A stretch of 64,000 nucleotides of DNA from an uncultured Verrucomicrobiota bacterium (GCA_964524715.1 CAZGGF010000362.1:9968-73967); one strand, 5' to 3'. Positions 1 through 52,197 are shown, numbered from the stretch's first letter. The notes: generated from the sequence alone by a model not told the origin. Made by a program: numbers and translations.

Positions 1-11
1 CGCAGCTTGTC

Positions 12-575
12 TTACGGCGCGGTGACCCGCAGCGCCGTTTCAAACCACAGGTCGTTGAAAACAAGCTGCATCATTTCACCCGGCACAAGTTTGACAAGGT
101 GAAGCGAGTTGGAGCCGGTGGCCAGGGCGAGCAATTCGGAAATGAAACCAGGATCGAACGTCAACAACCGTACGCGCCCGAGCCGCCGGATGTTGCGCCG
201 CGCCAGTTCGACCGTCTTGGCCACGTCGCCGGCGCTTTTCTTGACGATCCAGATGTCGGCATCGCCGAGCTTCAACGTCAGCTTCTCCAGCTTGTGAAGC
301 GAGACTTCCCCACACTCGACCCACAGTTCCGGCCGGCCATCCAACGCCAGCGCAACGAGGTCAGGCACAAACGGCACACCCGGCATCTCCAAGTCCACCT
401 CCAATCGCAACCGATCGCTGTGGAAGATCACAAACGCAAGCGCCTTGAGCAACACATGGTCCAGGGTTTCGCTCTGGCTCTGACTGATGACGATTTTCGA
501 CGGCAGTCTGCGGCTCTTCTCGTCGGAACCGAGGGCGAAGGTGAGCTTGGTGGAAATGGGAGACATGAAAAGCAA
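12..575 (-). CDS. YaeQ-family protein (probable)
   Basis: 187-aa ORF. The blocks SQSETLDHVLLKALAFVIFHSDRLRL and PELWVECGEV resemble the HPSET..RMMLRLLAW..ERL and DLWIELG blocks I recall from E. coli YaeQ. Size fits (~180 aa). The start could be the later Met at 566. Confidence 0.5.
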   Translation of the reverse strand: MLFMSPISTKLTFALGSDEKSRRLPSKIVISQSQSETLDHVLLKALAFVIFHSDRLRLEVDLEMPGVPFVPDLVALALDGRPELWVECGEVSLHKLEKLTLKLGDADIWIVKKSAGDVAKTVELARRNIRRLGRVRLLTFDPGFISELLALATGSNSLHLVKLVPGEMMQLVFNDLWFETALRVTAP

Positions 576-709
576 TAAGTAATTCGCAAGGGCGGGACTA
601 TCTCTTCCTCACCGACTCGGTGAAATCCCACCATAGGTCGTCCAGTGGTTTGCCGGGGCGCTTACCCCAGTAGGCGCGGTCAGGTGTCTGCGAGGTATCC
701 ACAATCACC

Positions 710-1939
710 TCAAATACCCAGCTCTCGTTTCACTTCGGCGAACGCCTGAATGGCAAACTCCAGATCTTCGCGCGAGTGTGCCGCGGAGATTTGCGTGCGG
801 ATGCGCGCCTTGCCTTGCGGCACGACGGGATAGGAGAAGCCGATGACGTAAACGCCCCGGGCCAGCATCGCTTCCGCCACGCGCGTGGCCAGCGCGGCGT
901 CGCCAAGCATGATCGGCACAATCGGATGCGTGCCGGGCAGGATGTTGAAGCCGGACTTCGCCATGCCTTCGCGGAAAAACTTCGTGTTTACCTCCAGCGT
1001 GTCACGAAGCGTGGTGGACTCGGAGAGCAGTTCGATCGCCTTGATGGAGCCGGCGACAATCGGCGGCGCAACCGTATTGGAGAACAAATACGGTCTCGAA
1101 CGCTGGCGCAGGAATTCGACGATCTCCTTGCGCCCGCTGGTGTAGCCGCCGCTGGCACCGCCAAGCGCCTTGCCGAGCGTGCCGGTGATGATGTCCACGC
1201 GGCCCATCACCCCATGATGCTCGTGAGAACCGCGTCCGCGCCGGCCGAGGACGCCCACGGCGTGCGAGTCGTCCACCATCACGAGCGCGCCGTGTTTCTC
1301 CGCGAGATCGCAGATGGCCGGCAGGTTGGCGACGGAGCCGTCCATCGAGAACACGCCGTCGGTGGCGATCAGCCGGAACCGCGCTGAGGCCGCCTCCCGC
1401 AGTTTCGCATCGAGATCGCCCATGTCGTTGTTGCGGTAGCGGAGCCGCTGCGCCTTGCAAAGGCGGATGCCATCAATGATGCTCGCATGGTTCAACTCGT
1501 CGGAGATGACCACATCTTCCGCGCCGAGCAGCGTCTCGAACAACCCGCCGTTGGCGTCGAAACATGATGAGTAGAGGATCGTATCCTCCGTGCCGAGAAA
1601 CTCCGCCAGTTTCGCTTCGAGCTGTTTGTGGATGTCCTGCGTGCCGCAAATGAACCGCACTGACGCCATCCCGTAACCCCATCGCTCCAGCGCCTCGCGC
1701 GCGGCAGCCGCCACCGCCGGGTGCTGGGCGAGGCCGAGGTAGTTATTGGCACAGAGGTTGAGCACCGGCTGGCCGTCGGCGACGCGGACGCGCGTGCCCT
1801 GCGGAGTGGCGAGGACGCGCTCGCGTTTGCAGGTGCCGGCAGCACAGATGTCGTCGAGTTGGCGCTGGAGGTATTGTTGAAAGGAACTGAGCATGGCTGT
1901 CACCGGGTTCGAGTTGCGGTTGTTGCCATCATTTGACAC
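710..1939 (-). CDS. kbl: glycine C-acetyltransferase (2-amino-3-ketobutyrate CoA ligase)
   Basis: 409-aa ORF with hallmark alpha-oxoamine synthase/Kbl blocks [10 protein letters not shown]-like ([15 protein letters not shown]), [26 protein letters not shown] and FSMDG. The start may be the internal Met near 1894. Confidence 0.9.
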
Positions 1940-2059
1940 CGCGCTTCAGGCAGCGGCAAGGAAAACTTCCGACGACTTCCGACGAACAACAGCAGTCCAG
2001 CCAGTGCTTGACCGGCAACAACCGAGAGAGGATGATTCGCGTCCAGCAGGGAACAACCT

Positions 2060-5005
2060 ATGAGTTCGTTGGTGGGTCAAACGTTTGCCGGTTACGAGAT
2101 CGTCTCCCAGCTTGGTCGTGGAGGGATGGGGTCGGTTTACAAAGCCCGTCAGTCAAAACTCAATCGTCTCGCTGCGTTGAAAATCATGGCGCCGGAACTC
2201 GCAGCCGATCCGGATTTCGTCGCCCGATTCAAACGCGAAGCCACCGCCGCCGCCAGCCTCAGCCATCCCAACATCGTACAGGTCTATTCCACCGGCGAGA
2301 GCGAGGAGACGCATTATATCGCGATGGAATTCGTGGACGGCGAGACGTTGAAGCAACACATCGAGCGCCAGGGCCGGTTGGACCCACGTGAGGCCATTGC
2401 CATCACCGTTTATGTTGCCGAAGCGCTGCAATACGGCTGGAACAAGGCCAGACTTATCCACCGCGACATCAAGCCCGAGAACATCTTCCTCTCGAATACC
2501 GGCGAGGTCAAAGTGGGCGATCTTGGCCTGGCAAAGACCGTGGGCGGGGCAACGACGAGCCTGACACAAACCGGCATGATGATGGGCAGCCCGCACTACA
2601 TCAGCCCGGAGCAGGCGCGCGGAGTGAGCGACATCGATTTTCGGACGGACATCTACAGCCTTGGTTGCACGCTCTATCACATGCTGACGGGCCGGCCGCC
2701 TTACGAAGGCCCGGACCCGCTGACGGTGATCACCAGACACGTGAACGATCCGCCGCCGGCGATCTTCAAGGTGTGGCCGACGTGCCCGATACCCGTGGCG
2801 TTGATGGTGGGCAAGATGCTGGCAAAGCAGCGCCATGAGCGGCCCGCGAGTTACGAAGATCTCATTGATCAACTGCGGGAGGTACATGGCAAGCTGAGAC
2901 CGGCCACCGCCGGACCCGCAATTACCGGCGAATCGCCAAAGGCAACGCCGACATCGGTGTCCGCGCAGTCGCAGTCGACACCGAAACCAGTTGTGGCGAA
3001 GGCAACAACCTCGCGGACGGCACCAGCAACGAAGGGGAAACCGGCCACTGGCAACTGGAAATGGGTAATAGGCGGCTTGGCTGGCATGGCGGCGCTGGCT
3101 CTGATCGCGGGCGGGATTTGGTGGTTTGCCGGTCGCCAGCCATCACGCAACGACGGACCCGCAGCAGAGACTCCGCCCGGTCAGCCAACCGCAGTCGCTC
3201 CGCCAAAGTTCGGCACGCTCTTCGACGGACGGGACACGTCCGCATGGCAACATCTTAATGGAGATGCGTGCCAGTGGCAGGTAACCGATGGCGCGCTGGT
3301 GGCTGGTGAAAGCGATCTCGACACGAAGGAGAAGTTTCAGGATTTCGATCTGCACATTGAATTCGCCGTGCCCAGCGACGCCAAGCAAGGCAACAGCGGC
3401 ATCTATCTGCAAGGCCGCTACGAGGTGCAGATTCTCAATTCCTTCGGCAAACCGGCAAACGACGTCTGTTGTGGCGCGATCTTCAGGCTCAAGGCGCCGG
3501 CCGAAAACGCCAGCAAGCCGTCGGACGAATGGCAAAGCTTCGACATCGCCTTCCACGCCGCGCGCTTCGATGCCGCCGGCACCAAGACCGCCAACGCTCG
3601 TGTCAGTGTCATCCACAACGGACGGCTCATTCAGGACGACGTCGAAATTTCAAAAAGCACGGGCAAGGGAGAACCGGAGAGTGCCGCACCCGGCCCAATC
3701 CGTCTTCAGGCTTACGGCAGTCCCGTGCGCTTCCGCAACATTCGCATCAAGCCGTTGGGCACGCCGGCGACATCCGCACCCGCCGCAGCCCAACAGCCGC
3801 GTCAGACTGTCGATCTGCTCGCGATCACCGACCCTTTCAAAGATCGCATCAAAGTGGAGAAAGGCGTCAGTCACTCCAAAGCCAATGCGTGGGAACGCCG
3901 CGGCAGCGCGCTCGCCTACATCAGTGACGGTGGCTCCGGCAAACTTGCGCCGCCCGTCGCAATTAATGCACGCAGTTACGAGATTGAGGTTGATTTCGAG
4001 CGGTTGTCAGGGCCGGGCCGTTTCCACGTGGATTTGCCGCTTGATGCCACTCGAATCATCCCGTTGAATTTCGACAGCAGTTACAAGATGATCAATTGCC
4101 GCGCTGGCGATCCGTGGCCAGCCAGCCGCGGTCCTCGCGCACGCGTCGTTGCGCGGTTGGACCGAGGCGAGGGGGGCACCCAAGACCATATCACCGTCCG
4201 TCTCGACGGGGAACTTGTGGTGGATTGGCGTGGAGATGCAGCAAGCGTCGCCCAAAAAGGCGAACCGCATCCTGACTTCTCCGGCCAGCCGATCACCTCG
4301 CTCTATGTGCACAAGGACAGCTACGAAGTTCGCTCCTGGCAACTGCGAGTCTTCGACGGCGAGGCGACAGTGCTGCGTGGTGCGGCGGCGGCAACGGCCG
4401 CCGATGCCGCCTGGCAAAACGCCATCAACCTGCTGCCGCTGATTGATCCACAACAGGACAAGGTTTCCGGGGATTGGAATGCGGTGAATGGGGAGTTGGC
4501 GGCAACTGACCCAGCGAGCATGTCGCAGAAACTGCAGCCTCCCTACCGGCCCGCCGAGGAGTATGACTACCGCGTCAGCTTCACGACGAAGAGCGGAAAT
4601 GCGGACGTCGCAATCGGGCTGACGGCAACCGGCAGGTCGTTTGTGTTCTACATGAAGAGGTTTGCCAAGGATCACGTCATCGGCTTCGAGGCCATCAACG
4701 GTAAAGCCGTCGGCAACGGACCCACGGCAGTTCACATTCCACATCTGGAACATGGCCGTCGCTACAGCGTGGTAGTTCAGGTCCGCAAGCAAGGTCTCAA
4801 GGCTTACCTCGACGGCAAACTTATGGTCGAGTGGCCGACCGATTACAGCGATATGAGTCCGTGGCCTGTCTGGAGGTTCAAAGACGACACGCTGCTGGGA
4901 TTCGGATGCAGCAAGACGACAGCGGTTTTCGATGAGATCAAACTGATCGAAATCAGCGGCAAGGGCACGTTCACGCGCGGCGCGCCGGCGAGTGCGAACA
5001 AGTGA
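2060..5005 (+). CDS. Ser/Thr protein kinase with TM segment, DUF1080 (3-keto-disaccharide hydrolase-like) ectodomain and two further repeated beta-sandwich-like domains
   Basis: N-terminal Hanks kinase motifs (GRGGMGSVYKA, HRDIKPENIF, DLGLAK, SPEQ). Hydrophobic stretch WKWVIGGLAGMAALALIAGGIWWF. Then LFDGRDTSAWQ...NSGIYLQGRYEVQILNS...VRFRNIRIKPL, typical of DUF1080. Two C-terminal repeats start DLLAITDP / NLLPLIDP. Confidence 0.9.
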   Translation: MSSLVGQTFAGYEIVSQLGRGGMGSVYKARQSKLNRLAALKIMAPELAADPDFVARFKREATAAASLSHPNIVQVYSTGESEETHYIAMEFVDGETLKQHIERQGRLDPREAIAITVYVAEALQYGWNKARLIHRDIKPENIFLSNTGEVKVGDLGLAKTVGGATTSLTQTGMMMGSPHYISPEQARGVSDIDFRTDIYSLGCTLYHMLTGRPPYEGPDPLTVITRHVNDPPPAIFKVWPTCPIPVALMVGKMLAKQRHERPASYEDLIDQLREVHGKLRPATAGPAITGESPKATPTSVSAQSQSTPKPVVAKATTSRTAPATKGKPATGNWKWVIGGLAGMAALALIAGGIWWFAGRQPSRNDGPAAETPPGQPTAVAPPKFGTLFDGRDTSAWQHLNGDACQWQVTDGALVAGESDLDTKEKFQDFDLHIEFAVPSDAKQGNSGIYLQGRYEVQILNSFGKPANDVCCGAIFRLKAPAENASKPSDEWQSFDIAFHAARFDAAGTKTANARVSVIHNGRLIQDDVEISKSTGKGEPESAAPGPIRLQAYGSPVRFRNIRIKPLGTPATSAPAAAQQPRQTVDLLAITDPFKDRIKVEKGVSHSKANAWERRGSALAYISDGGSGKLAPPVAINARSYEIEVDFERLSGPGRFHVDLPLDATRIIPLNFDSSYKMINCRAGDPWPASRGPRARVVARLDRGEGGTQDHITVRLDGELVVDWRGDAASVAQKGEPHPDFSGQPITSLYVHKDSYEVRSWQLRVFDGEATVLRGAAAATAADAAWQNAINLLPLIDPQQDKVSGDWNAVNGELAATDPASMSQKLQPPYRPAEEYDYRVSFTTKSGNADVAIGLTATGRSFVFYMKRFAKDHVIGFEAINGKAVGNGPTAVHIPHLEHGRRYSVVVQVRKQGLKAYLDGKLMVEWPTDYSDMSPWPVWRFKDDTLLGFGCSKTTAVFDEIKLIEISGKGTFTRGAPASANK

Positions 5006-5154
5006 GAACGCAACGTGTGTGGATGTCTCTGATCGTGGGAACGGCGCTGGCCGCGACAGTGCCCGAGCTCGCGCTACCAGCGGAAGTCGGAGACTCACGA
5101 CCGACGCAGCAAGTGCTTTGCGGGAAGCAGTCCCGGTTTTCCGTCCCTGCTGTG

Positions 5155-5256
5155 CTTGACCCGCTGGCGTGACCTGCTAGCGTGACAACGTGCAAACGAT
5201 GAAGACGCTGGTGCTTGGCCTCGGCAACGACATTCTTGCCGACGATGCCGTCGGCA
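5155..5256 (+). repeat. Repeat A1: duplicate of promoter plus first 22 codons of the hydrogenase-maturation-protease gene
   Basis: Hand alignment to 7884-7985 gives 102 bp with 8 mismatches. The 35 bp upstream of the start differ at 1 position. Confidence 0.85.
5156..5183 (+). promoter_or_regulatory. sigma70-like promoter copy: TTGACC-16 nt-TAGCGT
   Basis: TTGACC at 5156-5161 and TAGCGT at 5178-5183. It is nearly identical to the element upstream of the intact protease gene (7885-7912). GTG 5190 and ATG 5199 follow within 7-16 nt. Confidence 0.35.
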
Positions 5257-5381
5257 CCAGCGCCAACATCAACGCCGTGCAACTGTTGGACACCGGCACC
5301 TTCACCGACCCGCCCACCGCCGCCGACCTCATGGCCGTGGCCAACAAACTCAAAGAGTTGATTCAGGCGATGAGGAGATGA
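5190..5381 (+). pseudogene. chimeric ORF: protease N-terminus (22 aa) fused to the conserved ELIQAMRR tail module
   Basis: MQTMKTLVLGLGNDILADDAVG equals the start of the 7919 gene. The rest (TSANINAVQLLDTGTFTDPPTAADLMAVANKLKELIQAMRR) equals the peptide encoded at 6668-6792. It lacks the catalytic body of the protease. Confidence 0.5.
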
Positions 5382-5471
5382 TGAAGAAGTGAGACCACAG
5401 ATGGACACCGATGAACGCGGATGGGATGATCTTTAAATGAAAGGTGTCGTATGTACCGATTCATGATGATG
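5257..5471 (+). repeat. Repeat B1 (tail-peptide codons + 66-nt spacer + first codons of the downstream secreted-protein gene)
   Basis: 215 bp aligned by hand to 6668-6882 with about 17 mismatches. Confidence 0.85.
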
Positions 5472-6449
5472 GTCATCGCGGCGGGGATGGTGGCAGCAGC
5501 AACAGCGGCGGAGAAGGAGACGGCGATTGATTGGCCGCCGAGGGGGGCGTCGTTGGTCATCTCGATTGCGGAGCCGAAGATATGCGGGACGAATTCCGAT
5601 GTCCTCGACCCTAAATCCGGAACCAACGTGGCTAAAGAAGCATGCTTAATGGACGGCAAAATCGGCCCCGGCCAAGTTTTCAACGTCGTCCTGACCAATA
5701 CTTCCAGAAAGACGTTGAAGATCGTCGATGGCTTGAAAGATAGGTTCTCGGGTGAGAAGTTGACTTTCGAGGTCACCGACATGTCAGGCCGGAGATGGAC
5801 TGCGGCAATGAAACCGAGGGATTTCGAGGGGTCGTCCCGAGGCCCGCACTATTTCGTTCTCAAGCCGGGAGACAGTGTGGTGCTGCCTATCAATTTCGCC
5901 GACCAGAATGTCTGGGAGGGATTCCCCAAGCTGCCTTGGAACATACCTACGGAGGTCAACGTGCGGGCCGTGTTGGATGTCGAGCGGAGTAAACAGGCCT
6001 TGCGAGACGGGGCTTGGACCGGGCGCATCGTTTCGCGAATGGAGACGTTCGAGTTCAGTAATATGGTCTATGAGGGAAACAACGCCACTGGCATAGCCGC
6101 GGAGACGAAGGAGTTTGGATGGGTCAGTATCCGCATGGACCTTGGCGGCCCCAAACGGAACCAGAGCGTCGCGAAACTCGCGGTGACCATCCGCGGGAAA
6201 AAAGTGTCCGTGCCAGTCGCCGCGCTCGCCGACATCGAATGGCCCCAATACGAGAGCCTTCGTGTAAATGTGGATCTGGCCGACCCGGCTCGCCCGGTGT
6301 TGCTGGTCCATTTCGCCTTCGGCCGATCGCCGGAAGAGAAGCTGGATGGGCCAGACAAGCGGGTCTATTTCGTGTTCCGCGACGGCCAACTGCTGCGACG
6401 CTACATAACTGAGAAGTTCGAGAAGGAGATCTCCGAATGGAAGCCGTGA
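5451..6449 (+). CDS. secreted hypothetical protein (cassette gene 1)
   Basis: 332-aa ORF with Sec-type signal peptide MYRFMMMVIAAGMVAAATA-AE. Only the first ~35 aa (M-RF-MM ... IDWP-R) resemble cassette gene 2. I recognise no family for the rest. Visibly lower GC than the flanks. Confidence 0.6.
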   Translation: MYRFMMMVIAAGMVAAATAAEKETAIDWPPRGASLVISIAEPKICGTNSDVLDPKSGTNVAKEACLMDGKIGPGQVFNVVLTNTSRKTLKIVDGLKDRFSGEKLTFEVTDMSGRRWTAAMKPRDFEGSSRGPHYFVLKPGDSVVLPINFADQNVWEGFPKLPWNIPTEVNVRAVLDVERSKQALRDGAWTGRIVSRMETFEFSNMVYEGNNATGIAAETKEFGWVSIRMDLGGPKRNQSVAKLAVTIRGKKVSVPVAALADIEWPQYESLRVNVDLADPARPVLLVHFAFGRSPEEKLDGPDKRVYFVFRDGQLLRRYITEKFEKEISEWKP

Positions 6450-6493
6450 CGGCGATTGGACCGTAGGCACCGTCATAAATAATGTAAGAACCG

Positions 6494-6599
6494 TGACCAA
6501 TTCCTTGCAGGCCTAGATTCTGTGTGTATTACAGAACCATGAAGAATTGAGGTCCGACGATGGACGATTATGAGGCGGATGCGGCGTTTGCGCGGCGGC
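6494..6599 (+). repeat. Repeat C1 (3' cassette boundary including start of small MDDY ORF)
   Basis: Aligns to 7601-7706 at roughly 70-80 percent by eye. Shared strings are TGACCRATTCCTT, GAATTGAGG and ATGGACGAYTAYGASGCGGATGCGGYGTTTGCGCGRCGGC. Confidence 0.6.
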
Positions 6600-6792
6600 T
6601 GATCCAGTTCGATGCGGATGATCCGGCGACTTATTCGACCAACAACTCAACGACGCCATCGCCGGCACCAGCGCCAACACCAACGCCGTGCAACTGCTCG
6701 ACACCGGCACCTTCACCAACCCGCCCACCGCCGCCGACCTCATGGCCGTGGCCAACAAACTCAATGAGTTGATTCAGGCGATGAGGAGATGA
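6560..6792 (+). pseudogene. small ORF MDDYEADAAFARR... joined to the ELIQAMRR tail only through a -1 frame change
   Basis: Frame 0 (6560-6772) encodes a low-complexity P/T/S tail. The -1 frame is open from 6622 and encodes SGDLFDQQLNDAIAGTSANTNAVQLLDTGTFTNPPTAADLMAVANKLNELIQAMRR, with its stop at 6790-6792. It could be a frameshifted gene, a programmed shift or a sequencing error. Confidence 0.3.
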
Positions 6793-6882
6793 TGAAGATG
6801 TGAAACCACAGATGGACGCAGATGAAAGCGGATGGGATAATATTTAAACGATAGGTGTCGTATGAACCGATTCTTGATGATG
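6668..6882 (+). repeat. Repeat B2
   Basis: Partner of B1 (5257-5471). Confidence 0.85.
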
Positions 6883-7560
6883 GCGGTGGGCGTGGTGATG
6901 CTAACGGCGGACGGCTACGGTGCGGAAAGTGACGCGGCCAAAAACGCGCAGATTGATTGGCCGGCGCGCGCCGCGATGGTGAAGGTGGGGATGACCCGCG
7001 CGGAGGTGGAGAAGATTTTGCCAGAGTTGCAACCTCCGCGAGGATCGCGAAAAGCCATTTATTTCGGGTCCAAACCAGTGACCGATTCATGGAATGCCAA
7101 TGTTTATTGGGTTTCGCCGGACTGGCGTGTGACGATTAAATATGATTTCACCGGCGCACCGAAACCGCTCACGCCTACGAAGCTACAGGAATCGGTGGGG
7201 CCGGCAAACCGGGTGATTGCGCCAGTGAAGACGCTCAAAATCCCGTTTCCGCCGAAATATGATCCGAAGCTTTTTGATCCCGTTCTCCAGGAGAAGATTA
7301 GTGCCATCATCAAAGAGTGTGCATTGATCAGGCCCGGAATGACCCGCGCCGACCTCTTGAAGGTTTTCACAGAGGAAGGCGGCCTTTTTGTTCCCGACCG
7401 TCGAAGCTACGTTCACCGTTTCTGTTCTTATATCAAAGTGGATGTGGAGTTCTCACTCACCGACCCCAACCAGAGTACGGACTTTCTGGATTCGGAACGG
7501 CCGACGGACATCATTACCAAAACCTCCAAGCCGTATTTGGAGTGGTTTCGCTTTGACTGA
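6862..7560 (+). CDS. secreted hypothetical protein with two BamE/SmpA_OmlA-like motifs (cassette gene 2)
   Basis: 232-aa ORF with signal peptide MNRFLMMAVGVVMLTADGYG-AE. Two GMTRAEVEKIL / GMTRADLLKVF motifs resemble the SmpA/OmlA fold signature. The mature part is unrelated to cassette gene 1. Confidence 0.6.
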   Translation: MNRFLMMAVGVVMLTADGYGAESDAAKNAQIDWPARAAMVKVGMTRAEVEKILPELQPPRGSRKAIYFGSKPVTDSWNANVYWVSPDWRVTIKYDFTGAPKPLTPTKLQESVGPANRVIAPVKTLKIPFPPKYDPKLFDPVLQEKISAIIKECALIRPGMTRADLLKVFTEEGGLFVPDRRSYVHRFCSYIKVDVEFSLTDPNQSTDFLDSERPTDIITKTSKPYLEWFRFD

Positions 7561-7600
7561 TCATGAAACGCGCATTGTCGCCAGGTCGGTTCTTGAATCT

Positions 7601-7706
7601 TGACCGATTCCTTACCGGATAAGATTGTTGCCGATTGCAGAGCTGTGGAGAATTGAGGCAATGACCATGGACGACTACGACGCGGATGCGGTGTTTGCGC
7701 GACGGC
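7601..7706 (+). repeat. Repeat C2
   Basis: Partner of C1. It contains a third MDDY-type start (ATG 7661/7667, MTMDDYDADAVFARRRRRQ...) that diverges after FARR. Confidence 0.6.
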
Positions 7707-7883
7707 GGAGGCGGCAAGTGGGCAGTGGGCAGCCGGAGGGAAGTGGAAACGCGAAACGGGAAAGGCGAATTACGAAATGGTGGAAGTGCCCGTTGCCTCA
7801 TGGATAAATGACACCGAAGGATTCTGAGTAGGCAGGTGTGATGGACTCAAACGCAATGAAAACTTCCGGCTTCCATCTCCCAC

Positions 7884-7985
7884 CTTGACCCGCTGGCGTG
7901 ACCTGCTAGCGTGACATCGTGCAAACGATGAGAACATTGGTGCTTGGCCTCGGCAACGATATCCTCGCCGACGATGCCGTCGGCA
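7884..7985 (+). repeat. Repeat A2 (native promoter TTGACC 7885-7890 / TAGCGT 7907-7912 and 5' end of the protease gene)
   Basis: Partner of A1. Confidence 0.85.
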
Positions 7986-8392
7986 TTCTGGCGGCGCGCG
8001 CACTGAAGGGACAGTTGGGCGACCTTGCGGACGTGCAGGAGACCTCATGGCATGGCGTGGCACTGCTCGAACTGTTCATCGGCTATGACCGCGCAATCCT
8101 GCTCGACGCCGTCATGACCGGCAAGCACGCGCCCGGCACGGTCATCGAGATCGATCCCGACAAGCTTGCGCCCATCCAAGGTGCTTCACCGCATTTCACC
8201 GGCCTGCCGGAGATGATCGCCCTGGCGAAGGATCTCGAACTGGAGTTCCCGAAAAACTTCCGCATCTTCGCCGTCGAGGTGGCCAACCCGCATACCATCG
8301 GCGGCGAAATGACCCCCGCCGTTCGAAACGCGATTCCGGCGCTCTGCGATCGTGTTTGCACTGCGCTTGGCAAGTCCGCCGCCAAGTCGTAG
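7919..8392 (+). CDS. hydrogenase maturation protease family protein (HyaD/HybD-like), orphan
   Basis: 157 aa. MRTLVLGLGNDILADDAVG, ILLDAV and SPHFTG match the GNxxxxDD / D / H metal-ligand blocks of HybD as I recall them. No hydrogenase subunit genes occur in the window. Confidence 0.8.
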   Translation: MQTMRTLVLGLGNDILADDAVGILAARALKGQLGDLADVQETSWHGVALLELFIGYDRAILLDAVMTGKHAPGTVIEIDPDKLAPIQGASPHFTGLPEMIALAKDLELEFPKNFRIFAVEVANPHTIGGEMTPAVRNAIPALCDRVCTALGKSAAKS

Positions 8393-8465
8393 CCCAACCA
8401 GCATTGCGTCTGTCAGACGGGCGTGAGATAAGAAGCGGAAACTGCCCGTCCAAAGGAGAAACGAT

Positions 8466-10439
8466 ATGCGCTTGCCTTGTTGGTTGTCCGTCGCTGCGAT
8501 GACGTTGATCGCCGGAATCGCGCCCGGCTCGTCAGAAGAAGCCAACCTCGTCCATAACGCCGGGTTTGAAGACGGCAAAACCTCCTGGAACCTGCCGAAG
8601 ACGTTTAGCGTCATCGATGACGTTGCCCACTCCGGCACGCATAGTCTGCGGTTGGTCAACACGAACAAGGCGACCTATCTCCTCGCCTCACAGGCCATTC
8701 AGTTCAAGCCTGGCATGAAGTATCGCTACAGCGCGTGGATCAAAACGCGGGGCGTGCAAGGCGAGGAAAGTGGTGCGACGCTCTGCATGGAATGGACCGG
8801 AGCCAAAGGCTGGCTCGGCGGCAGCTACGCCTCCGGCAAGAAGGGTGATCGTGATTGGTTCCACATCGAGGATGTCACCGCGCCGATTCCGAAGGAGGCA
8901 ACCAGCGTTCGTGTCAGTCTTTACCTGCGCAAAGGCATGACCGGCGTAGCGTGGTTCGACGACGTCAACGTGACCGAACACTACCCTCCCGCGCTGGATG
9001 CAGCACTATTGCAGCCCAATTATCGTGGTCGGTTGCCGAAGAATGCCGCCAACCAGCGCGTGATTGTGCGCGTCAAACTCGCCGACTTCATGAAGGGTTC
9101 GCTGAAGCCGGAGCAGACAACTCTTGTGTGCTCGTTGCTCGCTGGCGACAAAACCGTGCGCGAGCAGCATGTCAAACAGCCGCGAGCCGGTTACAATGAC
9201 GTGACGTTCGATGCGAAGTCGCTGGCGGTCGGGGATTACCGCGTGCATGTCGAACTATCCGCCCCCGACGGGATATCGCTGGGCCGGCAGGATTTCGAAT
9301 TGCACAAGCTCGCTGCGAACGCGCCGAAACCGGCCGTTTTCCTGGACAAGCTGAATCGCACGATCGTCAACGGCAAGCCGTTCTTTCCTCTCGGCTGGTA
9401 TTTCGGACCGGGACCGACGACGAAGAATTTTGAAGATCACCTAGACCGCATCGCCGCCAGCTCGTTCAACACGATCATGTGCTACGGCGTCAACGCCGGC
9501 GGCGTCGAGAAGGTCCGCGCCTATCTCGACGCGTTTGCCGCGCGCAAGTTGAAGATCATCTACTCGATCAAGGATGTCTTTGCCGGCACGCAGTATTACC
9601 ACGAGCCGGTGCTCGGCTTCCGTGGAGAAGACGCCATCGTGCGCGGTGTTGTTCCGCTCTTCCGTGACCATCCGGCGCTGCTCGCGTGGTATCTGAACGA
9701 CGAGCTGCCGCTGACCATGCGCGACCGGCTTGACGCGCGCAACCAGCTCGTGCAGCAACTCGACCCGAATCACCCGACATGGGCTGTGCTCTATCAGGTG
9801 GATGAGTTCTACGGTTATCTCAACTCCGCCGACGTGCTGGGCGCCGATCCATATCCGGTGAACGAACGTCCCGTGACGATGGTGTCGGACTGGACACGAA
9901 AATGCGCTGCCGTGTCGGACGGACTGCGGCCGTTGTGGATGGTGCCGCAGGCAATGAACTGGGCCTGCTACCACAAGGATCGCGCTGACAAACTCCGAGC
10001 GCCGACGCTCGATGAAGAACTGGTAATGACCTACCTCTGTCTCATCCACGGTGCGAAGGGTCTCATCTACTACTGCTATCACGACCTGATGCGCGACCAG
10101 CTCGGCTTTGACAAACGCTGGGCCGATATGCTCGTCGTCGGCAACGAGGTGAAACAACTCTTCCCGCCGCTGCTCTCGGCGGCGAAACCGCCGAAGTTTG
10201 ACGTGAAAGCGAGCCGCGATGCCGTGCAATGCGCCACTCGCGCCGATGACGCCAGCCTCCGTTACATTCTGATGGCCAATCCGGACCCGAAGGAAGCCGC
10301 CACCGTCAGCATCGCCGTGTCGCCACGCTCCAAACTCCAGTTGCTCCAACGCGGCCAAGTCAAACCCGTGACCGCAGCCAATGGCCGCTGTGAAATTTCG
10401 TTGGAACCGATGAGCGCCGCGACGCTGATCGTCAAGTAG
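8466..10439 (+). CDS. secreted CBM4_9-like carbohydrate-binding module + TIM-barrel glycoside hydrolase (family uncertain)
   Basis: Signal peptide. N-terminal NLVHNAGFEDG...HSGTHSLRL...GVAWFDDVNV is typical of CBM_4_9-type modules. The C-terminal NGKPFFPLGWY...LLAWYLNDE block is homologous to the C-terminus of the 52198-55044 protein. Confidence 0.7.
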   Translation: MRLPCWLSVAAMTLIAGIAPGSSEEANLVHNAGFEDGKTSWNLPKTFSVIDDVAHSGTHSLRLVNTNKATYLLASQAIQFKPGMKYRYSAWIKTRGVQGEESGATLCMEWTGAKGWLGGSYASGKKGDRDWFHIEDVTAPIPKEATSVRVSLYLRKGMTGVAWFDDVNVTEHYPPALDAALLQPNYRGRLPKNAANQRVIVRVKLADFMKGSLKPEQTTLVCSLLAGDKTVREQHVKQPRAGYNDVTFDAKSLAVGDYRVHVELSAPDGISLGRQDFELHKLAANAPKPAVFLDKLNRTIVNGKPFFPLGWYFGPGPTTKNFEDHLDRIAASSFNTIMCYGVNAGGVEKVRAYLDAFAARKLKIIYSIKDVFAGTQYYHEPVLGFRGEDAIVRGVVPLFRDHPALLAWYLNDELPLTMRDRLDARNQLVQQLDPNHPTWAVLYQVDEFYGYLNSADVLGADPYPVNERPVTMVSDWTRKCAAVSDGLRPLWMVPQAMNWACYHKDRADKLRAPTLDEELVMTYLCLIHGAKGLIYYCYHDLMRDQLGFDKRWADMLVVGNEVKQLFPPLLSAAKPPKFDVKASRDAVQCATRADDASLRYILMANPDPKEAATVSIAVSPRSKLQLLQRGQVKPVTAANGRCEISLEPMSAATLIVK

Positions 10440-10533
10440 AGCATCGCGAGCATTCGCCAGTGAATTATTGCCCAAACCGGTGAAAACCGCCTGCCAACGA
10501 TCTTGCACAGCAACGGGTGTTCCACATGACGGG

Positions 10534-11613
10534 ATGACCAAGAAAGCCGTGCGGCCCGTGACGTTCCGTGCGCAAAGGCTGCATCTTGGAATCATGCTGA
10601 CCGTCTTGTTTGCATGCATCGCAGCCGCGAGCCCGGCGCAGTCCGCATCCCCGACGGAACGAGCGGCAGAACAGATCCTGCGCCACGTGACGAGCGATGG
10701 CGCGATTGTGATGGGCCCCCTCCCGGCGAAGCAATCGCACCTGATCCCCTATTTCGCGAGTTTCGCAGCTCACGGACTTGTCGCCGCTTTTGCCGGGACG
10801 CATGATGCCCGTTTTCTGGATGCAGCCAAACACTGGGTCGCCTGGCATGAGACCCACATGAACGCCGACGGAACCATTTACGATTTTGACGGCGCACCCG
10901 GTGCGTGGAAACCCACAGGCGATTACGATTCGACCGATTCTTATGCAGCGACCTATCTTGAACTGATACTCGCTGTTCATCGTGCTGCGCCAGACCGCGA
11001 CTGGCTGCGGCTACGGCTGCCGGCTGTTCGACAGGCGATTGCTGCCATCCGCCTGACGCTTCAGCCCAACGGCCTGACCACCGCCAAACCGAAATGGCCG
11101 GTGATGTACCTGATGGACAATACGGAGGTTGCCGCCGGTCTTCGTGCGGCGGAGGCCATGGGCCGCATTCTCGGCGATCAAAGGTTGCAGCAGGAGGTGG
11201 GAACGATGGCGGACAGAAGTGAACAGGCGATTGCGCGCGAGTTGTGGGATAACACACGGCAGGCGTATTGCGTCGGCTTGCAGACCGATGGCGCGAAGGT
11301 CAACGATCGGCAGGAATGGTATCCGTATGTCATGGCGAATCTGATGGCGGTTGGCTGGCTGCCACCGCCAGAGCGTCATCGCGAATTACTGCAGAGATTC
11401 AAAGGGAGGTTCTCTTCAAGCATCCCGGCGTCCGTTCGCACGGAGAACGATCTGGGGCGGCTGGTCTGGTGGGGCATCGCGGCTCGCGGCGCGGGGGACC
11501 ACAAGTTGCTGGCAGAAATCGCAGCAAAGCTGGCTGCGTTTGACGCACGCGTGAAGGAATTCGACAATCCAGCACTGCTTGGCCATCTCTGCCGCATCCT
11601 GGCGCGCGATTAG
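10534..11613 (+). CDS. secreted hypothetical protein, possibly (alpha/alpha)6 six-hairpin glycosidase-like
   Basis: ORF with signal-like MLTVLFACIAAASPAQS. Helix-rich repeats contain aromatic/Asp motifs (DGTIYDFDG, YLMDNTEVAAGL, WYPYVMANL). The family is not firmly recognised. The start was chosen at Met 10534 and 10594 is also possible. Confidence 0.45.
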   Translation: MTKKAVRPVTFRAQRLHLGIMLTVLFACIAAASPAQSASPTERAAEQILRHVTSDGAIVMGPLPAKQSHLIPYFASFAAHGLVAAFAGTHDARFLDAAKHWVAWHETHMNADGTIYDFDGAPGAWKPTGDYDSTDSYAATYLELILAVHRAAPDRDWLRLRLPAVRQAIAAIRLTLQPNGLTTAKPKWPVMYLMDNTEVAAGLRAAEAMGRILGDQRLQQEVGTMADRSEQAIARELWDNTRQAYCVGLQTDGAKVNDRQEWYPYVMANLMAVGWLPPPERHRELLQRFKGRFSSSIPASVRTENDLGRLVWWGIAARGAGDHKLLAEIAAKLAAFDARVKEFDNPALLGHLCRILARD

Positions 11614-11674
11614 TTCATTCGTCGCAACCGGACGATTCAATCAACGTTCCGCCACGCCGCAGCGAAGATCCGGC

Positions 11675-12268
11675 TCACCGATAGATATCCACGAGGAAGA
11701 CGATGGCTTCACCCTTGCCGGCATTGACGATGGCATGCGGCACATCGGCGCGATAGGTGGCGGAATCACCGGGCGCCAGTTCCTCTGCATCGCTGCCGGA
11801 TTCGACGCGCACACGGCCTTTCTGGACCGTGAGAAACTCGCGAGTGCCTTCGAAGTGCGGGCTGCTGCGCAAAGCGCCTTCTTCGACGAGGCGCACTTCG
11901 TAAAACTCCACGTCTTTTTCCAGATTCAACGGTGAAAGCGTCCGGATGCGGCAATGCTTGTCGGACCGGTAGTGGTAGGCGCGATCCTCAGCGCGAATCA
12001 CCTCGACAGCCGAGGTCGCCCCTGGCGTTTCCACCAACGCGCCCAACGTCATGCCAAAAGCACGTGCAATGCGGAAGGCGACGGCAAGCGTCGGGTTGGC
12101 GCGGGCACGCTCGATCTGGCTGAGCATGGAACGGCTGACACCGGAGGCCTTGGCCAGCGCATCGAGCGACCACCCGCGCTCGGCGCGGAGCTGCTTCAGG
12201 CGGCGGCAAAGATGTCCGCTGACCGGGTCGGCGGCCGGGACTGACTTGGGAGAAGAGGCATTACTCAT
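11675..12268 (-). CDS. XRE-family HTH transcriptional regulator with C-terminal cupin domain
   Basis: LRAERGWSLDALAKASGVSRSMLSQIERARANPT is a classic HTH_3 motif. The C-terminal GDSATYRADVPHAIVNAG is cupin_2-like. It is divergent from tdh. Confidence 0.85.
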   Translation of the reverse strand: MSNASSPKSVPAADPVSGHLCRRLKQLRAERGWSLDALAKASGVSRSMLSQIERARANPTLAVAFRIARAFGMTLGALVETPGATSAVEVIRAEDRAYHYRSDKHCRIRTLSPLNLEKDVEFYEVRLVEEGALRSSPHFEGTREFLTVQKGRVRVESGSDAEELAPGDSATYRADVPHAIVNAGKGEAIVFLVDIYR

Positions 12269-12414
12269 GGCGTCAATATATTGGAGATAGTTCTTGCATA
12301 CTGGATACGTATATGTTCAATATAATGCACATACTTCCATAATGTTGGAAATAATGCAGACCTGTGGCCGGCTTGGCAACTGTTTTTCCTTCCGGCCCAA
12401 CCGGAGAACAAACG
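12269..12414. promoter_or_regulatory. AT-rich divergent promoter/operator region between the XRE-cupin regulator gene and tdh
   Basis: A sharp local GC drop. Palindromes CAATATATTG (about 12274-12283) and ATACGTAT. A consensus TATAAT lies within TTCAATATAATGC. Confidence 0.4.
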
Positions 12415-13443
12415 ATGAAAGCCTTGGTAAAACGAAACTCAACGAGAGGACTCTGGCTGGAAGATGTGCCGGAGCCGGAAACCGGCTTGAACGACGTGCT
12501 GATCCGGGTGGATCGCACGGGCATTTGCGGCACCGACCTCCACATTTACAACTGGGATGCCTGGGCGCAGAAGACCATTCCCGTGCCGCTGGTGGTCGGC
12601 CATGAGTTCGTCGGTGAAATCGTCAAGGTGGGCTCGAATGTGAAGGACTTCTTCCCCGGCCAGATTGTCAGTGGCGAGGGGCACGTTGTCTGCGGCCGTT
12701 GCCGAAACTGTCTTGCCGGCCGGCGGCATCTCTGCGCAGACACCAAAGGCATCGGCGTGAACCGGCCTGGCGCGTTCGCCGAATACCTGTCACTGCCCAT
12801 GACCAACGTCTGGGTCCACAATGACAACATCGACCGCGATGTGGCCTCCATCTTTGACCCGTTTGGCAACGCGGTGCACACGGCACTGTCGTTCCCGTCG
12901 CTCGGCGAGGATGTGCTTGTCACTGGCGCGGGCCCCATCGGCATCATGGCCGCGGCGGTGGCGCGGCACGCCGGCGCGCGCCACGTTGTGATTACTGACG
13001 TGAACCCGTGGCGGCTGGAATTGGCGCGGAAAATGGGTGTGACGCTGGCCGTGGATACGCGCAAACAGAGTCTGAAGGATGTGCAGAAGCAACTTGGCAT
13101 GAAGGAAGGCTTCGACGTGGGGTTGGAGATGTCGGGCAACGCCGCCGCGTTCCGCGACATGCTGGCGAACATGAGTCACGGCGCAAAGATCGCCATGCTC
13201 GGCATTCCGCCGGAGGCGATGGCGATCGACTGGAACGCTGTAATCTTCAACATGCTCACGATCAAGGGTATCTATGGTCGCGAGATGTACGAAACGTGGT
13301 ATAAGATGACCGTCATGCTGGAAAGCGGTCTCGATATACGGCCGGTCATTACGCACCGGTTTCATTACACGGAGTTTGAAAAAGGTTTTGAAGTGATGAA
13401 CAGCGGTCAATCAGGCAAAGTCGTCTTGGATTGGAAACAATGA
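12415..13443 (+). CDS. tdh: L-threonine 3-dehydrogenase
   Basis: MKALVK...[35 protein letters not shown]...[21 protein letters not shown] matches zinc-ADH Tdh throughout. The start was placed at ATG 12415 rather than the track start of 12364. Confidence 0.92.
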
Positions 13444-13456
13444 ACTGTGCGTTGCC

Positions 13457-14080
13457 ATGAACCTGCCGTCACCCCAGGTGCTGCTTGAACACTTTGGCGT
13501 CTTTGTCTCCGCCATCACGGGTGTGCTGGCGGCGCGTGGCAAGAAGTTCGACTTGTTCGGCGTGTTGGTGCTTGCACTGGTGACGGCGTTTGGCGGCGGG
13601 ACGGTGCGCGACGTGCTTGTCGGTGACTTCCCCGTGGTCTGGCTGCGTGGCCCAGCGCTGTTGATCAACGCGACACTTGCGGCGTTGCTGACGTTCTTCA
13701 TCGCGCGATTCCACAAGTTGCCACACCGCGCGCTCATGGTGGCAGACGCCTTTGCACTGGCGTTCTTCACCATGCTCGGCACGCAAAAGGGCGTGGCGCT
13801 TCATTTCTCGCCACCGGTGGCAGTGCTGCTTGGGGTGGTCACAGGAGTGGCGGGCGGTATTGCGCGTGATGTGCTGACGGGCGAAGTGCCGATGGTGTTC
13901 CGGCCGGAAATACACCTCTACGCCACGGCATCGCTATGCGGCGCGGTCCTGTACGTGGCGCTGCCCGGCGTAGGCGCAGGCGATTCGCTGGCGACATTGG
14001 CAGGCGCGGGACTGGTGTTGGTATTGCGTCTGGCGGCGATTTACTGGAAGCTGTCATTGCCTTTGTTTGAGGCGCGGTGA
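13457..14080 (+). CDS. UPF0126 / prokaryotic TRIC-type channel family membrane protein (Pfam Gly_transporter domain, as I recall)
   Basis: 207 aa and about 7 TM segments. It has two copies of the motif G(G)GxxRD (FGGGTVRDVLVG, AGGIARDVLTG). It lies 13 nt downstream of tdh. Confidence 0.75.
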   Translation: MNLPSPQVLLEHFGVFVSAITGVLAARGKKFDLFGVLVLALVTAFGGGTVRDVLVGDFPVVWLRGPALLINATLAALLTFFIARFHKLPHRALMVADAFALAFFTMLGTQKGVALHFSPPVAVLLGVVTGVAGGIARDVLTGEVPMVFRPEIHLYATASLCGAVLYVALPGVGAGDSLATLAGAGLVLVLRLAAIYWKLSLPLFEAR

Positions 14081-14135
14081 AAATCTTTTGCGTCCGTCGT
14101 TAGAATCGCGGATAGTAGATCAGCTTGAGGCAAGA

Positions 14136-14744
14136 ATGATGAATAGAAGACAGCGTTTTTCGCGTGGCGGTTTCACACTGGTGGAACTGTTGGTGGTGAT
14201 GACGATTTTGGGCATTTTGTCGGCCTTGCTGTTCCCGGCCCTTTCAAAGGGCAGAGGTAACATGGAAAAGGCCGCGTGTGCCAATAACATGCGGCAGATT
14301 TCCCTATTCATCACCCAGTATGCACGTGATAAGGATATTTATCCAGAAAGCGGACGTTGGGCGGGAACCTCCAGTGTTGAAGACGGTCCACTCGGTCGGT
14401 ATGTCAAGGAACCCAAGATTTACATGTGTCCAACCGACACACAGTTGAAGGACGCATTAAAGAACCACAGCAAGCAACGGCTGACGAGTTACTCTTACAA
14501 TAGTTGGTTCGATCGGAAACCGTTCAGCGTCTCAGTGGACTTGTCTCGGGCAATCATTCTGATGGAGCCCAATGTGGGCAGCGGCGGAAGCATGCAGCAA
14601 AGTTTTCAGGGGGCCGGTGCGCCCCGCCTTACCGACCGCCATAACGGTGGTGGCCATATCGCCTATGGCGATGGACACGCGGAGTTCATCACCCAGCAGC
14701 GTTTCCAGAAGAACAAGGACACCATCTTCGAAGTCACGCGCTGA
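14136..14744 (+). CDS. prepilin-type N-terminal cleavage/methylation domain protein, DUF1559 (H-X9-DG) family
   Basis: GFTLVELLVVMTILGILSALLFPAL N-terminal pilin-like motif and a C-terminal DRHNGGGHIAYGDGH (H-X9-DG). Lower GC than its neighbours. Confidence 0.8.
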   Translation: MMNRRQRFSRGGFTLVELLVVMTILGILSALLFPALSKGRGNMEKAACANNMRQISLFITQYARDKDIYPESGRWAGTSSVEDGPLGRYVKEPKIYMCPTDTQLKDALKNHSKQRLTSYSYNSWFDRKPFSVSVDLSRAIILMEPNVGSGGSMQQSFQGAGAPRLTDRHNGGGHIAYGDGHAEFITQQRFQKNKDTIFEVTR

Positions 14745-14786
14745 GCCAACTCAACGCACCGCCGATGCGCGGAGTCGGACGTTGCG

Positions 14787-15788: not shown

Positions 15789-15939
15789 GCTTGGCTCAAA
15801 AATACTCGTTTGATTTCAGATACTCGATAACACCACCCTTTTCAAGGTGGAACACGAAGGCTGCGCGCCCCACATATGAGCGTTCCACCCGCGCCGGGTG
15901 TTGTGTTATGTTGACGCCTGTGAAAATGGAGGACGCATC

Positions 15940-16623: not shown

Positions 16624-16665
16624 TGACTACCGTGAGAAATTTTTTTCGTGGATTGAAATACGTGA

Positions 16666-16693
16666 TTGACCCTTGGGAAGAATGGTGTAAGTT
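16666..16693 (+). promoter_or_regulatory. sigma70-like promoter TTGACC-16 nt-TAAGTT
   Basis: TTGACC at 16666-16671 and TAAGTT at 16688-16693, inside the intergenic region downstream of the hydrolase gene. Confidence 0.35.
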
Positions 16694-16802: not shown

Positions 16803-16808
16803 GGCCCC

Positions 16809-16836
16809 TTGACTTGCCCGGTTGCTCCTTTAAGCT
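16809..16836 (+). promoter_or_regulatory. sigma70-like promoter TTGACT-16 nt-TAAGCT upstream of aroB
   Basis: The -10 element ends 10 nt before the aroB ATG (16847), implying a very short leader or none. Confidence 0.35.
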
Positions 16837-16846
16837 GCCGTCATTC

Positions 16847-47068: not shown

Positions 47069-47080
47069 GGCAGATGTGGC

Positions 47081-50014: not shown

Positions 50015-50018
50015 GACC

Positions 50019-52190: not shown

Positions 52191-52197
52191 AATAGGA

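Follow-up and report, generated by a model that had tools for sequence, protein, structure and literature searches.

The 64,000-nt stretch of DNA considered here (the window; GCA_964524715.1 CAZGGF010000362.1:9968-73967, from an uncultured Verrucomicrobiota bacterium, with block positions counted within it) contains, upstream of the hydrogenase-protease gene hycI, a 2.6-kb block that, judged by its sequence, is a patchwork of two copies of a swappable module. Each copy comprises the 3' remnant of a collagen-like gene (element B), a gene for a predicted secreted protein (gene1 or gene2) and the 5' end of a conserved downstream open reading frame (ORF; element C), and the whole lies between two copies of the promoter-proximal part of hycI (element A). 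Modules with the order B-cargo-C exist in many copies in metagenome-assembled genomes (MAGs) of Verrucomicrobia, and their cargo is unrelated between loci. How could such an array have come together without a dedicated recombinase? With moderate confidence, we favour the view that it was built by homologous exchange combined with microhomology-mediated joins resembling those of homology-facilitated illegitimate recombination (HFIR).

The block as an insertion at the hycI locus

Three classes of repeat delimit the block, and mismatch counts obtained by comparing repeats within the window bear out what an initial annotation of this DNA had said of them. Repeat A (5155-5256 vs 7884-7985) shows 8 mismatches in 102 nt (92% identity), and repeat B (5257-5471 vs 6668-6882) shows 16 in 215 nt, where about 17 had been counted; a repeat search extends B to 5240-5489 vs 6651-6900 (250 nt, 88% identity). 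In repeat C (6494-6602 vs 7601-7709), 83 of 110 positions are identical when gaps are allowed (~75%), with a 47-nt core (6556-6602 vs 7663-7709) that reaches 85%. These identities over 100-250 nt exceed chance by far, and no further copy of A, B or C is found within the 64-kb window. The order A1-B1-gene1-C1-B2-gene2-C2-unique-A2-hycI, as originally described, is correct, and so is the lower GC content of the block (55.5%, vs 60-61% in the flanks).

A scan of metagenome contigs with the HycI protein recovered the orthologous locus on 10 contigs, 7 of them with the 5' end of the gene. The closest relative locus (designated L046; 96% amino-acid identity) is colinear with window positions 1-5256 plus 7884-9768 as one continuous stretch that holds a single A, and loci L047-L050 likewise have a single A each and no block; the order at the empty site in L046 and four others is kinase, one A, hycI, with nothing between. 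Because L046 and L047-L050 all carry a single A, the empty arrangement is best taken as ancestral, and on this comparison 5257-~7851 is an insertion, i.e. ~2.6 kb of extra DNA acquired either horizontally or intragenomically. The initial annotation had let its proposal hinge on whether orthologous loci in relatives are static, and the comparison indeed yields hycI loci that lack the block. Relative to the empty site of L046, the insert is flanked by a target duplication of at least 102 nt, and the duplicated A is a by-product of the insertion.

A1 (5155-5256; this and all other window features of the block lie on the plus strand) bounds the insert on its left. It consists of an extra hycI promoter-proximal box and the first codons of hycI, which number 22, as annotated, when counted from GTG 5190, or 19 when counted from ATG 5199, the more likely start. 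The TTGACC-16-TAGCGT box that had been singled out in A is present at 5156-5183 and invariant across five relatives, in which the hycI upstream box CTTGACCCG...TAGCGTG is unchanged; it is not among the sites returned by a generic sigma-70 scan. On the right, the native hycI upstream region (7852-7883) is followed by A2 (7884-7985). A1 is identical to the single A of L046 at 98/102 positions and A2 at 94/102, and the sequence upstream of A1 is of the L046 type. The sequence upstream of A2 is not homologous to it and represents an L049-like allele, the 31 nt at 7852-7882 being 26/30 identical to the hycI-upstream region of L049. Given two alleles of the hycI promoter-proximal region in one genome, recombination with a diverged donor fits better than duplication in situ. 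The alleles are consistent with such a donor; the identity profiles of the flanks are not decisive, since sliding identity against L046 shows no clear step and does not indicate the incoming side. The right end of the insert is an unassigned segment of 67 nt (7785-7851) with no match among the fetched loci.

At the left edge, the HycI N-terminus is fused in frame to the last 41 codons of the collagen-like gene, and the resulting chimeric 60-aa ORF (5199-5381) is probably a by-product. This ORF bears on the possibility that the arrangement is an assembly artefact, i.e. a chimeric contig or one mis-joined across a repeat. Repeats of the B type do break assemblies, and many B-motif loci are located at contig ends, as is usual for repeats. 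However, the A1-B1 fusion ORF recurs on an independent metagenome contig (P0004; JGI 3300075153), where its distances from the kinase gene and from gene1 are unchanged, which argues that the arrangement is genuine, and the repeat copies differ from each other by 8-12%, so that neither collapse nor mis-joining would be expected. An artefact, which had been raised at the outset as a possible explanation, is therefore barely credible.

The protease gene downstream of A2 is intact (7928-8392, with an alternative start at 7919) and encodes a hydrogenase maturation protease of the hycI/hybD type that matches Pfam PF01750 (5.9e-11, 42.8 bits, cut-off 23) and TIGR00072 (94.6 bits, cut-off 47.45). It is solitary in that no structural gene of a hydrogenase occurs within 18 kb (window 1-18500). 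Its neighbours are a gene for a Ser/Thr kinase fused to a 3-keto-disaccharide-hydrolase (DUF1080) domain and, on the other side, one for a CBM/NTTRR-F1 protein. Exact-sequence look-ups for gene2, HycI and the fusion ORF of the window returned no record.

Module borders and their variable cargo

What is element B? A search with the B peptide (...TSANTNAVQLLD...KLNELIQAMRR) returns short proteins only, several of which start with Gly-X-Y repeats, and a B-motif scan over one genome per species finds 37 loci, which with few exceptions belong to Verrucomicrobia MAGs and of which a single genome can carry several (four in bin-0333, seven in JBAYFL01 and five in JAPLTX01). With their frames extended, the collagen-like genes encode ~150-370 aa (most 230-370, few shorter), made up of a conserved N-terminus (MPFDPxxP...MRGQLxAL), a triple-helix region (Collagen, the only domain that Pfam recognizes in these proteins) and a shared C-terminal tail. 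Full-length homologues of B lie at L005 1316-2191 and L008 774-1622, and full-length genes head the arrays in L005, L008 and L011. Since these full-length genes share the C-terminal tail, B is identified as the 3' end of a collagen-like gene; the earlier notion of B as a cassette boundary as such has to be given up in favour of a gene end with the remnant of its terminator. The C-terminus is constant (96-100% identity over 125 nt between loci). In the window, the coding remnant of B1 (5257-5381; TSANINAVQLLD...KLKELIQAMRR) retains the C-terminal 41 codons and the stop, and that of B2 (6622-6792; SGDLFDQQLNDAIAGTSANTNAV...ELIQAMRR), with a stop codon immediately upstream, retains the last 56 codons and the stop. 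The points of left truncation vary, falling in L005 coordinates at 1918, 1934, 1973, 2022 (B2) and 2059 (B1), and the 64-kb window contains neither a full-length collagen-like gene nor a further B motif. In several lineages, a conserved 190-300-aa protein without a Pfam match is encoded directly upstream of the collagen-like gene (L011 4175-4864, L016 4229-4945, L020 3977-4867, L033 3720-4589 and L028 4513-5085); in L008, an FN3 protein occupies this position.

The nature of the collagen-like gene invites a different explanation, namely that the loci are decayed right ends of prophages, tailocins or some other integrative element, with the collagen-like protein as tail fibre, the cargo as morons and C next to an attachment site. 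The collagen-like proteins do match PHROG tail-fibre families, weak tail-protein matches exist for the upstream FN3 protein of L008 and for a 334-aa protein of L021, the copies are dispersed, multiple and truncated, and restriction-modification (R-M) cargo with toxin-antitoxin genes nearby would be in keeping with such elements. However, the PHROG matches are limited to the collagen repeats, and the C-terminal domain has no relative in IMG/VR (B-motif scan) or among GenBank phages and PLSDB plasmids (tblastn, E<=1). Moreover, no capsid, terminase, integrase or other tail genes accompany the collagen-like gene in ~45 loci, and full-length copies stand alone amid housekeeping genes. An origin from phages or tailocins thus appears unlikely.

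The spacers that follow the B stop codons seem to descend from the terminator of the collagen-like gene. In the JBAYFL lineage, GAAGAAGTGAAACCACAGATGGACACnGATGAACnCGGATGGGATAAT forms the left arm of a hairpin that precedes a U tract (-40 kcal/mol, z -5 to -6.4; L011 6142-6244, L013 5568-5670 and L014 6142-6244), and this combination is, by its predicted fold, an intrinsic terminator. The window spacers (B1, 5382-5450, with the left arm of the former hairpin, and B2, 6793-6861) have lost the right arm and fold no better than shuffled sequence (z ~0); cargo starts within or just past the former hairpin loop. About 20 nt ahead of either payload start, the spacer arm matches TGGACA-17-GAT(A/G)AT and has a TG extension; the match takes the form of TGGACA-17-GATGAT at 5402-5430 in B1 and of a promoter-like TGGACG-17-GATAAT at 6813-6841 in B2. 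Because each B thus has a conserved promoter-like motif of its own, expression of gene1 from A1 is not required, and the duplicated hycI promoter, which the initial annotation regarded as driving the array, is a possible driver of gene1. The last part of B is the payload start itself, MNRF(M/L)MMA...IDWP(A/P)R, and this MNRF...IDWP N-terminus heads many members of the gene2 family and other genes as well (L003, L044 twice and L049). In the JAPLTX lineage (L009, L019 and L022), two TCGGGCGTCTCGCCCGA palindromes, some copies of which carry one or two substitutions, lie within 110 nt after the stop of the collagen-like gene, i.e. a different terminator or REP (repetitive extragenic palindrome)-like element in the same position.

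The right-hand border is a gene fragment, too. An alignment of C from seven loci contains a 60-nt core, composed of a ribosome-binding region and MDDYDADAAFARR, whose substitutions are synonymous or conservative (GAT/GAC, TAT/TAC, D/E/N), as coding predicts; the core is therefore read as coding sequence, and C as the beginning of a conserved ORF further downstream (MDDYDADAAFARR...), behind which heptamer repeats lie. C1 (6528-6637) spans the ribosome-binding region and 26 initial codons of the MDDY(E)ADAAFARRLIQFDADDPATYS ORF (ATG 6560); it is cut off at the B2 junction and aligns with C of L005, L008, L001, L006 and L007. C2 (7634-7784) carries MDDYDADAVFARR (ATG 7667), GGCAAG(GTGGGCA)x2 heptamers (7716-7732) and purine-rich repeats of the GCGAAAC type. 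The ORF continues as LI(D/Q)FD(A/P)DDPA in L005, L008 and C1, and in L005 it extends further, as a longer ORF (...ACDYLAVTWTVAEAKALADVLTPG...) that exits the contig. The sole match to 57 aa of this post-C ORF is a truncated fragment of 96 aa (P0012) with ParE genes behind it, and the ORF after C has no Pfam match. C1 possesses the LIDFDADDPATYS segment and C2 does not, and both variants are found elsewhere: in C2, L001, L006 and L007, the internal segment is absent and GGCAAG(GTGGNCA)2-5 and the GCGAAAC-type purine-rich repeats follow. The right ends of C vary among loci. Immediately beyond C, genes for ParE-family toxins are found in L001 (1642-1788) and L045 (209-723), the latter locus also with an Unstab_antitox antitoxin.

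The heptamer element is confined to these loci, always lies on the same strand as B and is held in common with the distant JBAYFL arrays (0/300 shuffles reached the alignment score). As GGCAAG(YGGNCAG)n followed by GCGAAAC-type repeats, it is located at window 7716-7780, L001 1301-1324, L005 4697-4720, L006 8455-8471, L004 12867-12883, L011 9309-9325 and 11400-11416, L044 9645-9668 and L009 5225-5241. The heptamer is present in 2-5 copies, and with this number the frame of the downstream ORF relative to the MDDY start changes.

That B and C might border other cassettes outside the window had been suggested by the initial annotation, and both do recur with other cargo in L001, L005-L008 and L044. 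The L005 cargo (bin-0333 contig 051, 2225-4464), which lies on the opposite strand, comprises a complete Eco29kI-type restriction endonuclease, a C5 cytosine methyltransferase and a Vsr mismatch endonuclease, and this R-M system is the only match of any cargo to an immunity or defence family. Elsewhere, the cargo is a 590-aa TPR protein (L008), a TPR protein with two membrane proteins (L006), a 598-aa protein with a DUF4064-like membrane protein (L007), a 139-aa protein with a HEAT-repeat protein (L044) or a 231-aa internally repeated protein (L001). The cargo breakpoints differ, falling at the stop codon, ~47-49 nt past it or inside the signal peptide. L001/L002 and L003, which come from different samples, have the left flank and a truncated B in common and differ in their cargo, which, as far as sequence comparison can tell, is direct evidence of cargo replacement at a fixed locus. 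The proposal that conserved boundaries around variable payloads serve as a substrate for homologous exchange finds support in this swap, with B as the left and C as the right boundary.

The JBAYFL arrays L004 (10175-14260) and L011 (6142-11420) contain 5-6 genes each after a full-length or truncated collagen-like gene. A common leader and signal peptide, MKTISRNLLLL, opens most of these genes, and lipoprotein-like cysteines occur in some. A conserved core of 45 nt, CGGAGAATGGCCCCGAAGCCGGACGCGAAAGGAATG, lies between the genes, and heptamer repeats close the arrays; no covarying helix is seen by eye in an alignment of the inter-cassette element.

As for the payloads of the window, gene1 (5451-6449) encodes a predicted secreted protein of 332 aa, of which the N-terminal ~35 aa (signal peptide and IDWPPR) are common to the gene2 family and the remainder is an ORFan: no relative but the protein itself was found among 5.8 billion proteins, and there is no match in Pfam, PHROGs, NCBIfam or PADLOC. 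Its third-position GC (GC3 = 0.73) is of the coding type, as is that of gene2, and gene1 appears to have taken its first ~35 codons from a gene of the gene2-family type. By contrast with this isolated protein, gene2 (6862-7560; 232 aa, predicted secreted, with the motif GMTRA(E/D) twice) is one member of a large family of small secreted proteins, for which 967 cluster representatives were found at E<=1e-3 and 229 at E<=1e-10. It combines an N-terminal module, MNRF...IDWPARAA.VKVGMTRAEVEKILP, with a C-terminal domain of ~90 aa; the former occurs elsewhere in tandem or with other C-termini, and the latter also on its own in proteins of 100-140 aa, a relative being held by L005 at 337-1149. The match of gene2 to Pfam BamE is below the cut-off (E=0.009), and the family profile finds BLIP in the PDB only weakly (E=0.3) and over the GMTRxxV motif only; the GMTRA(E/D)(V/L) motif has sub-threshold matches to BamE and to both BLIP repeats. 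These similarities hint that gene2 may encode a small periplasmic binding or inhibitor domain of a BamE/BLIP-like kind. Neither PADLOC nor NCBIfam has a match for gene2, and single-sequence AF2 models were unusable (pLDDT 37.7 for gene1 and 34.0 for gene2). A role of the payloads as immunity proteins is backed by no result, and the window cargo has no immunity or defence family matches; the two are predicted to be accessory exported proteins.

Could gene1 and gene2 instead be old paralogs that arose by local tandem duplication and then diverged? B1/B2 and C1/C2 do follow the same order and orientation, and the two proteins share their first 44 residues, with the signal peptide and the IDWPxR motif. 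Beyond residue 44, however, there is no similarity between them, so that the mature proteins are unrelated, as annotated, save for this short N-terminal likeness, and full-length diverged paralogs, which would have spoken against exchange, they are not. Furthermore, gene2 has hundreds of relatives and gene1 has none, and C1 and C2 are distinct variants, with and without LIDFDADDPATYS, both of which exist elsewhere. The B copies point the same way: the coding part of B2 is identical at 122-123 of 125 nt to six of the seven copies compared (from bin-0333 and metagenome contigs) and at 120 to that of L044, which brings it nearer to copies in other genomes than to B1 (120/125); B1 and its copies elsewhere are identical at 117-120 of 125 nt. 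Local tandem duplication is highly improbable on these grounds and can be regarded, from the sequences compared, as effectively refuted.

Junctions and a proposed route of assembly

Both junctions in the window are, by their sequence, microhomology joins made at imperfect short homologies. At A1|B1, the parents are identical at 11/16 positions in a patch that ends in GGCA, the microhomology already pointed out in the initial annotation. At C1|B2 (6623-6640), they are identical at 13/17 positions in the 17-nt patch CCGGCGAnGTnTnCGCC (C side CCGGCGACGTATTCGCC, B side CCGGCGAAGTCTCCGCC). A novel joint at a few bases of microhomology, together with duplication or deletion of recipient sequence, is what marks a product of HFIR, and both features are seen here, in the two patches and in the duplication of at least 102 nt. 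With variable module ends, variable cargo breakpoints and junctions formed at microhomologies, the array gives no sign of a defined cassette site.

Nor is there a recombinase next to the block, in agreement with the initial annotation. A Pfam scan of the ORFs of 150 aa or more in window 1-18.5 kb recognized the kinase, HycI, glycosidase-like proteins, an HTH protein and others, and neither a recombinase nor a transposase; precomputed Pfam lists for +/-10 kb around the arrays L004 and L042-L045 contain no recombinase or transposase either. Positions 5000-8100 hold no attC-like R''...R' pair (RYYYAAC, GTTRRRY) at 50-150 nt on either strand, inverted repeats in the block are weak (70-79% complementary for all arms >11 nt), and an Rfam scan of 4900-8500 gave two sub-threshold chance matches only. 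A diversity-generating retroelement was rejected as well: the differences between B1 and B2 are, by eye, not confined to adenines, and no reverse transcriptase occurs in the Pfam-scanned ORFs or the locus lists.

From these features we infer a recombination pathway, an order of events and the expression of gene1 and gene2. The insert (5257-~7851) would represent a variable locus that is dispersed in this verrucomicrobial lineage, present here as two copies in tandem, each truncated at its ends; in its complete form, the locus would run from the collagen-like gene through its terminator and the variable cargo to the conserved downstream ORF (MDDYDADAAFARR...) with heptamer repeats. Cargo would be swapped between copies or strains by ordinary homologous recombination, with crossovers in the conserved 3' end of the collagen-like gene, in the shared leader/signal-peptide segment and in element C. 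New arrangements would arise when one end of a fragment is joined by microhomology-mediated illegitimate recombination, whether HFIR or template switching. One such join would have placed module 1 (gene1) ahead of module 2 (gene2), truncating C1 and B2, and a separate join would have fused hycI codon 19/22 to B1, leaving the A1 and A2 alleles on either side of the block. A dedicated recombinase would be unnecessary, and gene1 and gene2 might owe their expression either to the promoter-like motifs of the B spacers or to transcription that reads through from A1.

Several observations sit uneasily with this account. The pathway is read from junction anatomy alone, and no donor locus with the exact B1...C2 order was found. 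The arrays of a distant lineage, L004 and L011, are regular, each with 5-6 same-strand cassettes, a conserved 45-150-nt element before each cassette and a heptamer end, and they look more organised than random illegitimate events would lead one to expect. Between lineages whose B peptides share only ~60% identity, both the heptamer element and the spacer have been conserved, which hints at a sequence-specific function. The B remnants are presumably non-coding and yet 96-100% identical between loci, which requires very recent spread, gene conversion or selection. Finally, a route of DNA uptake, e.g. competence, has to be assumed for this organism.

An alternative is an integron-like cassette system, in which a trans-acting recombinase would act on the terminator-hairpin spacer and/or on GGCAAG(YGGNCAG)n and place cargo downstream of a collagen-like platform gene. 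Such a system would account for the L004 and L011 arrays, regular, in one orientation and with a conserved inter-cassette element, for cargo that starts in the former loop of a strong hairpin, for heptamers that are array-specific, never change strand and have been conserved even between distant lineages, and for the conservation of the promoter-like motif in the spacer; toxin-antitoxin and R-M genes in or beside the modules are also known from integron arrays. However, no recombinase was encountered near any array examined, there are no attC-type box pairs or convincing inverted repeats, the breakpoints vary by locus on both sides, the L005 cargo lies on the opposite strand, and parental microhomology suffices to explain both window junctions. 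We therefore consider a cassette system rather doubtful. In its broader form, Verrucomicrobia would possess an undescribed cassette platform, with the terminator region of the collagen-like gene as site of insertion and expression and the window as a relocated fragment of two cassettes, a proposition to which we likewise assign a low probability. If so, a conserved hairpin/promoter-like spacer, the GGCAAG(YGGNCAG)n element and cargo that gains a shared leader and signal peptide may be the features of the platform, and an unrecognised trans-acting recombinase or a hairpin-targeting mechanism may move the cassettes; the platform would then be a counterpart of integrons in function, with exported proteins as its cargo. 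Should the spacer and heptamer elements truly be recombination sites, they would define a new cassette system.

Relation to known arrays and further features of the window

Homologous exchange with HFIR-like joins has a close parallel in the arrays of orphan immunity genes of the Vibrio cholerae type VI secretion system (T6SS), for which an HFIR/sequential-displacement model was proposed whereby each gene is displaced downstream, and which its authors relate to the displacement of Rhs C-termini (Kirchberger et al. 2017, PMC5361080, citing Jackson 2009 and Poole 2011 for Rhs/CdiA C-terminal displacement). As in V. cholerae, a conserved upstream gene anchors incoming modules, their downstream joining is illegitimate, older downstream genes are pushed along and kept so that heterogeneous arrays arise, and there is no integrase. 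Unlike in V. cholerae, the block is without a T6SS, effector or toxin domain, the role of conserved gene falls to a collagen-like one, constant rather than polymorphic at its C-terminus, the cargo includes R-M, TPR and HEAT proteins, and the window copy has lost its master gene and sits inside the hycI 5' region. Examined as an orphan-module array, the block shows a 3' fragment of the master gene before each displaced gene (41 codons in B1 and 56 codons in B2), lacks a full-length master gene at the array head in the window and has no polymorphic toxin domain with an immunity partner. The likeness to orphan-module arrays, drawn by the initial annotation, holds at the level of mechanism.

Rhs and CdiA loci reportedly display orphan C-terminal modules and their displacement. 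In these loci, 3' gene fragments are each accompanied by a small downstream gene and can be re-recruited by homologous recombination. Strings of 3' fragments followed by a downstream gene are thus common to both; the fragment in Rhs/CdiA, however, is a variable toxic tip with a short conserved 5' homology, whereas here it is the conserved extreme 3' end and the downstream gene itself is variable. Integrons and their relatives without an integrase (clusters of attC sites, or CALINs) resemble the modules in having small accessory genes, mostly on one strand, with conserved repeats between them, in the dominance of unknown or exported cargo, in toxin-antitoxin genes nearby and in a promoter-like element at the head. 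They differ by IntI, attC structure, R boxes and fixed cassette boundaries, none of which is found here, and the block is on this evidence not an integron. The rAID-1 arrays of Bacteroidales contain an adjacent tyrosine recombinase and immunity genes that match known toxins. Compared from their description, they share with the block the repeat-separated small genes and horizontal acquisition, and neither a tyrosine recombinase nor toxin-matching immunity genes are seen here. Expression-site switching of vlp/vsp genes in Borrelia uses upstream and downstream homology sequences, and the block offers the same layout, with the leader and signal-peptide start as left homology, a right homology downstream and unrelated mature parts between them. 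Unlike in Borrelia, a single expression site with silent archives is not indicated, and the organism is free-living and environmental.

Taken in this context, accessory genes of uncultured Verrucomicrobia, mostly for exported proteins and in one case for an R-M system, would be shuffled although no mobile-element machinery is visible. Two conserved genes would supply the fragments that serve as portable homology arms, and microhomology joins would create new arrays and new insertion sites, which would extend the logic of sequential displacement in orphan modules beyond the toxin-immunity loci from which it is already known. The ...TSANTNAV...KLNELIxAxRR tail, the spacer and the MDDYDADAAFARR/heptamer element also provide a searchable signature for variable loci in metagenomes.

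Two observations concern the window outside the block. On the minus strand, 44873-57504 and 63481-64000 contain three to four tandem units of ~5.1 kb that are 64-89% identical, each with two large ORFs, one for a right-handed beta-helix protein (pectate-lyase-like; 731-815 aa) and one for a protein of ~950-980 aa that is GH42-like or unknown. The topoisomerase I gene (19752-22793) carries seven tandem C4 zinc-ribbon repeats.

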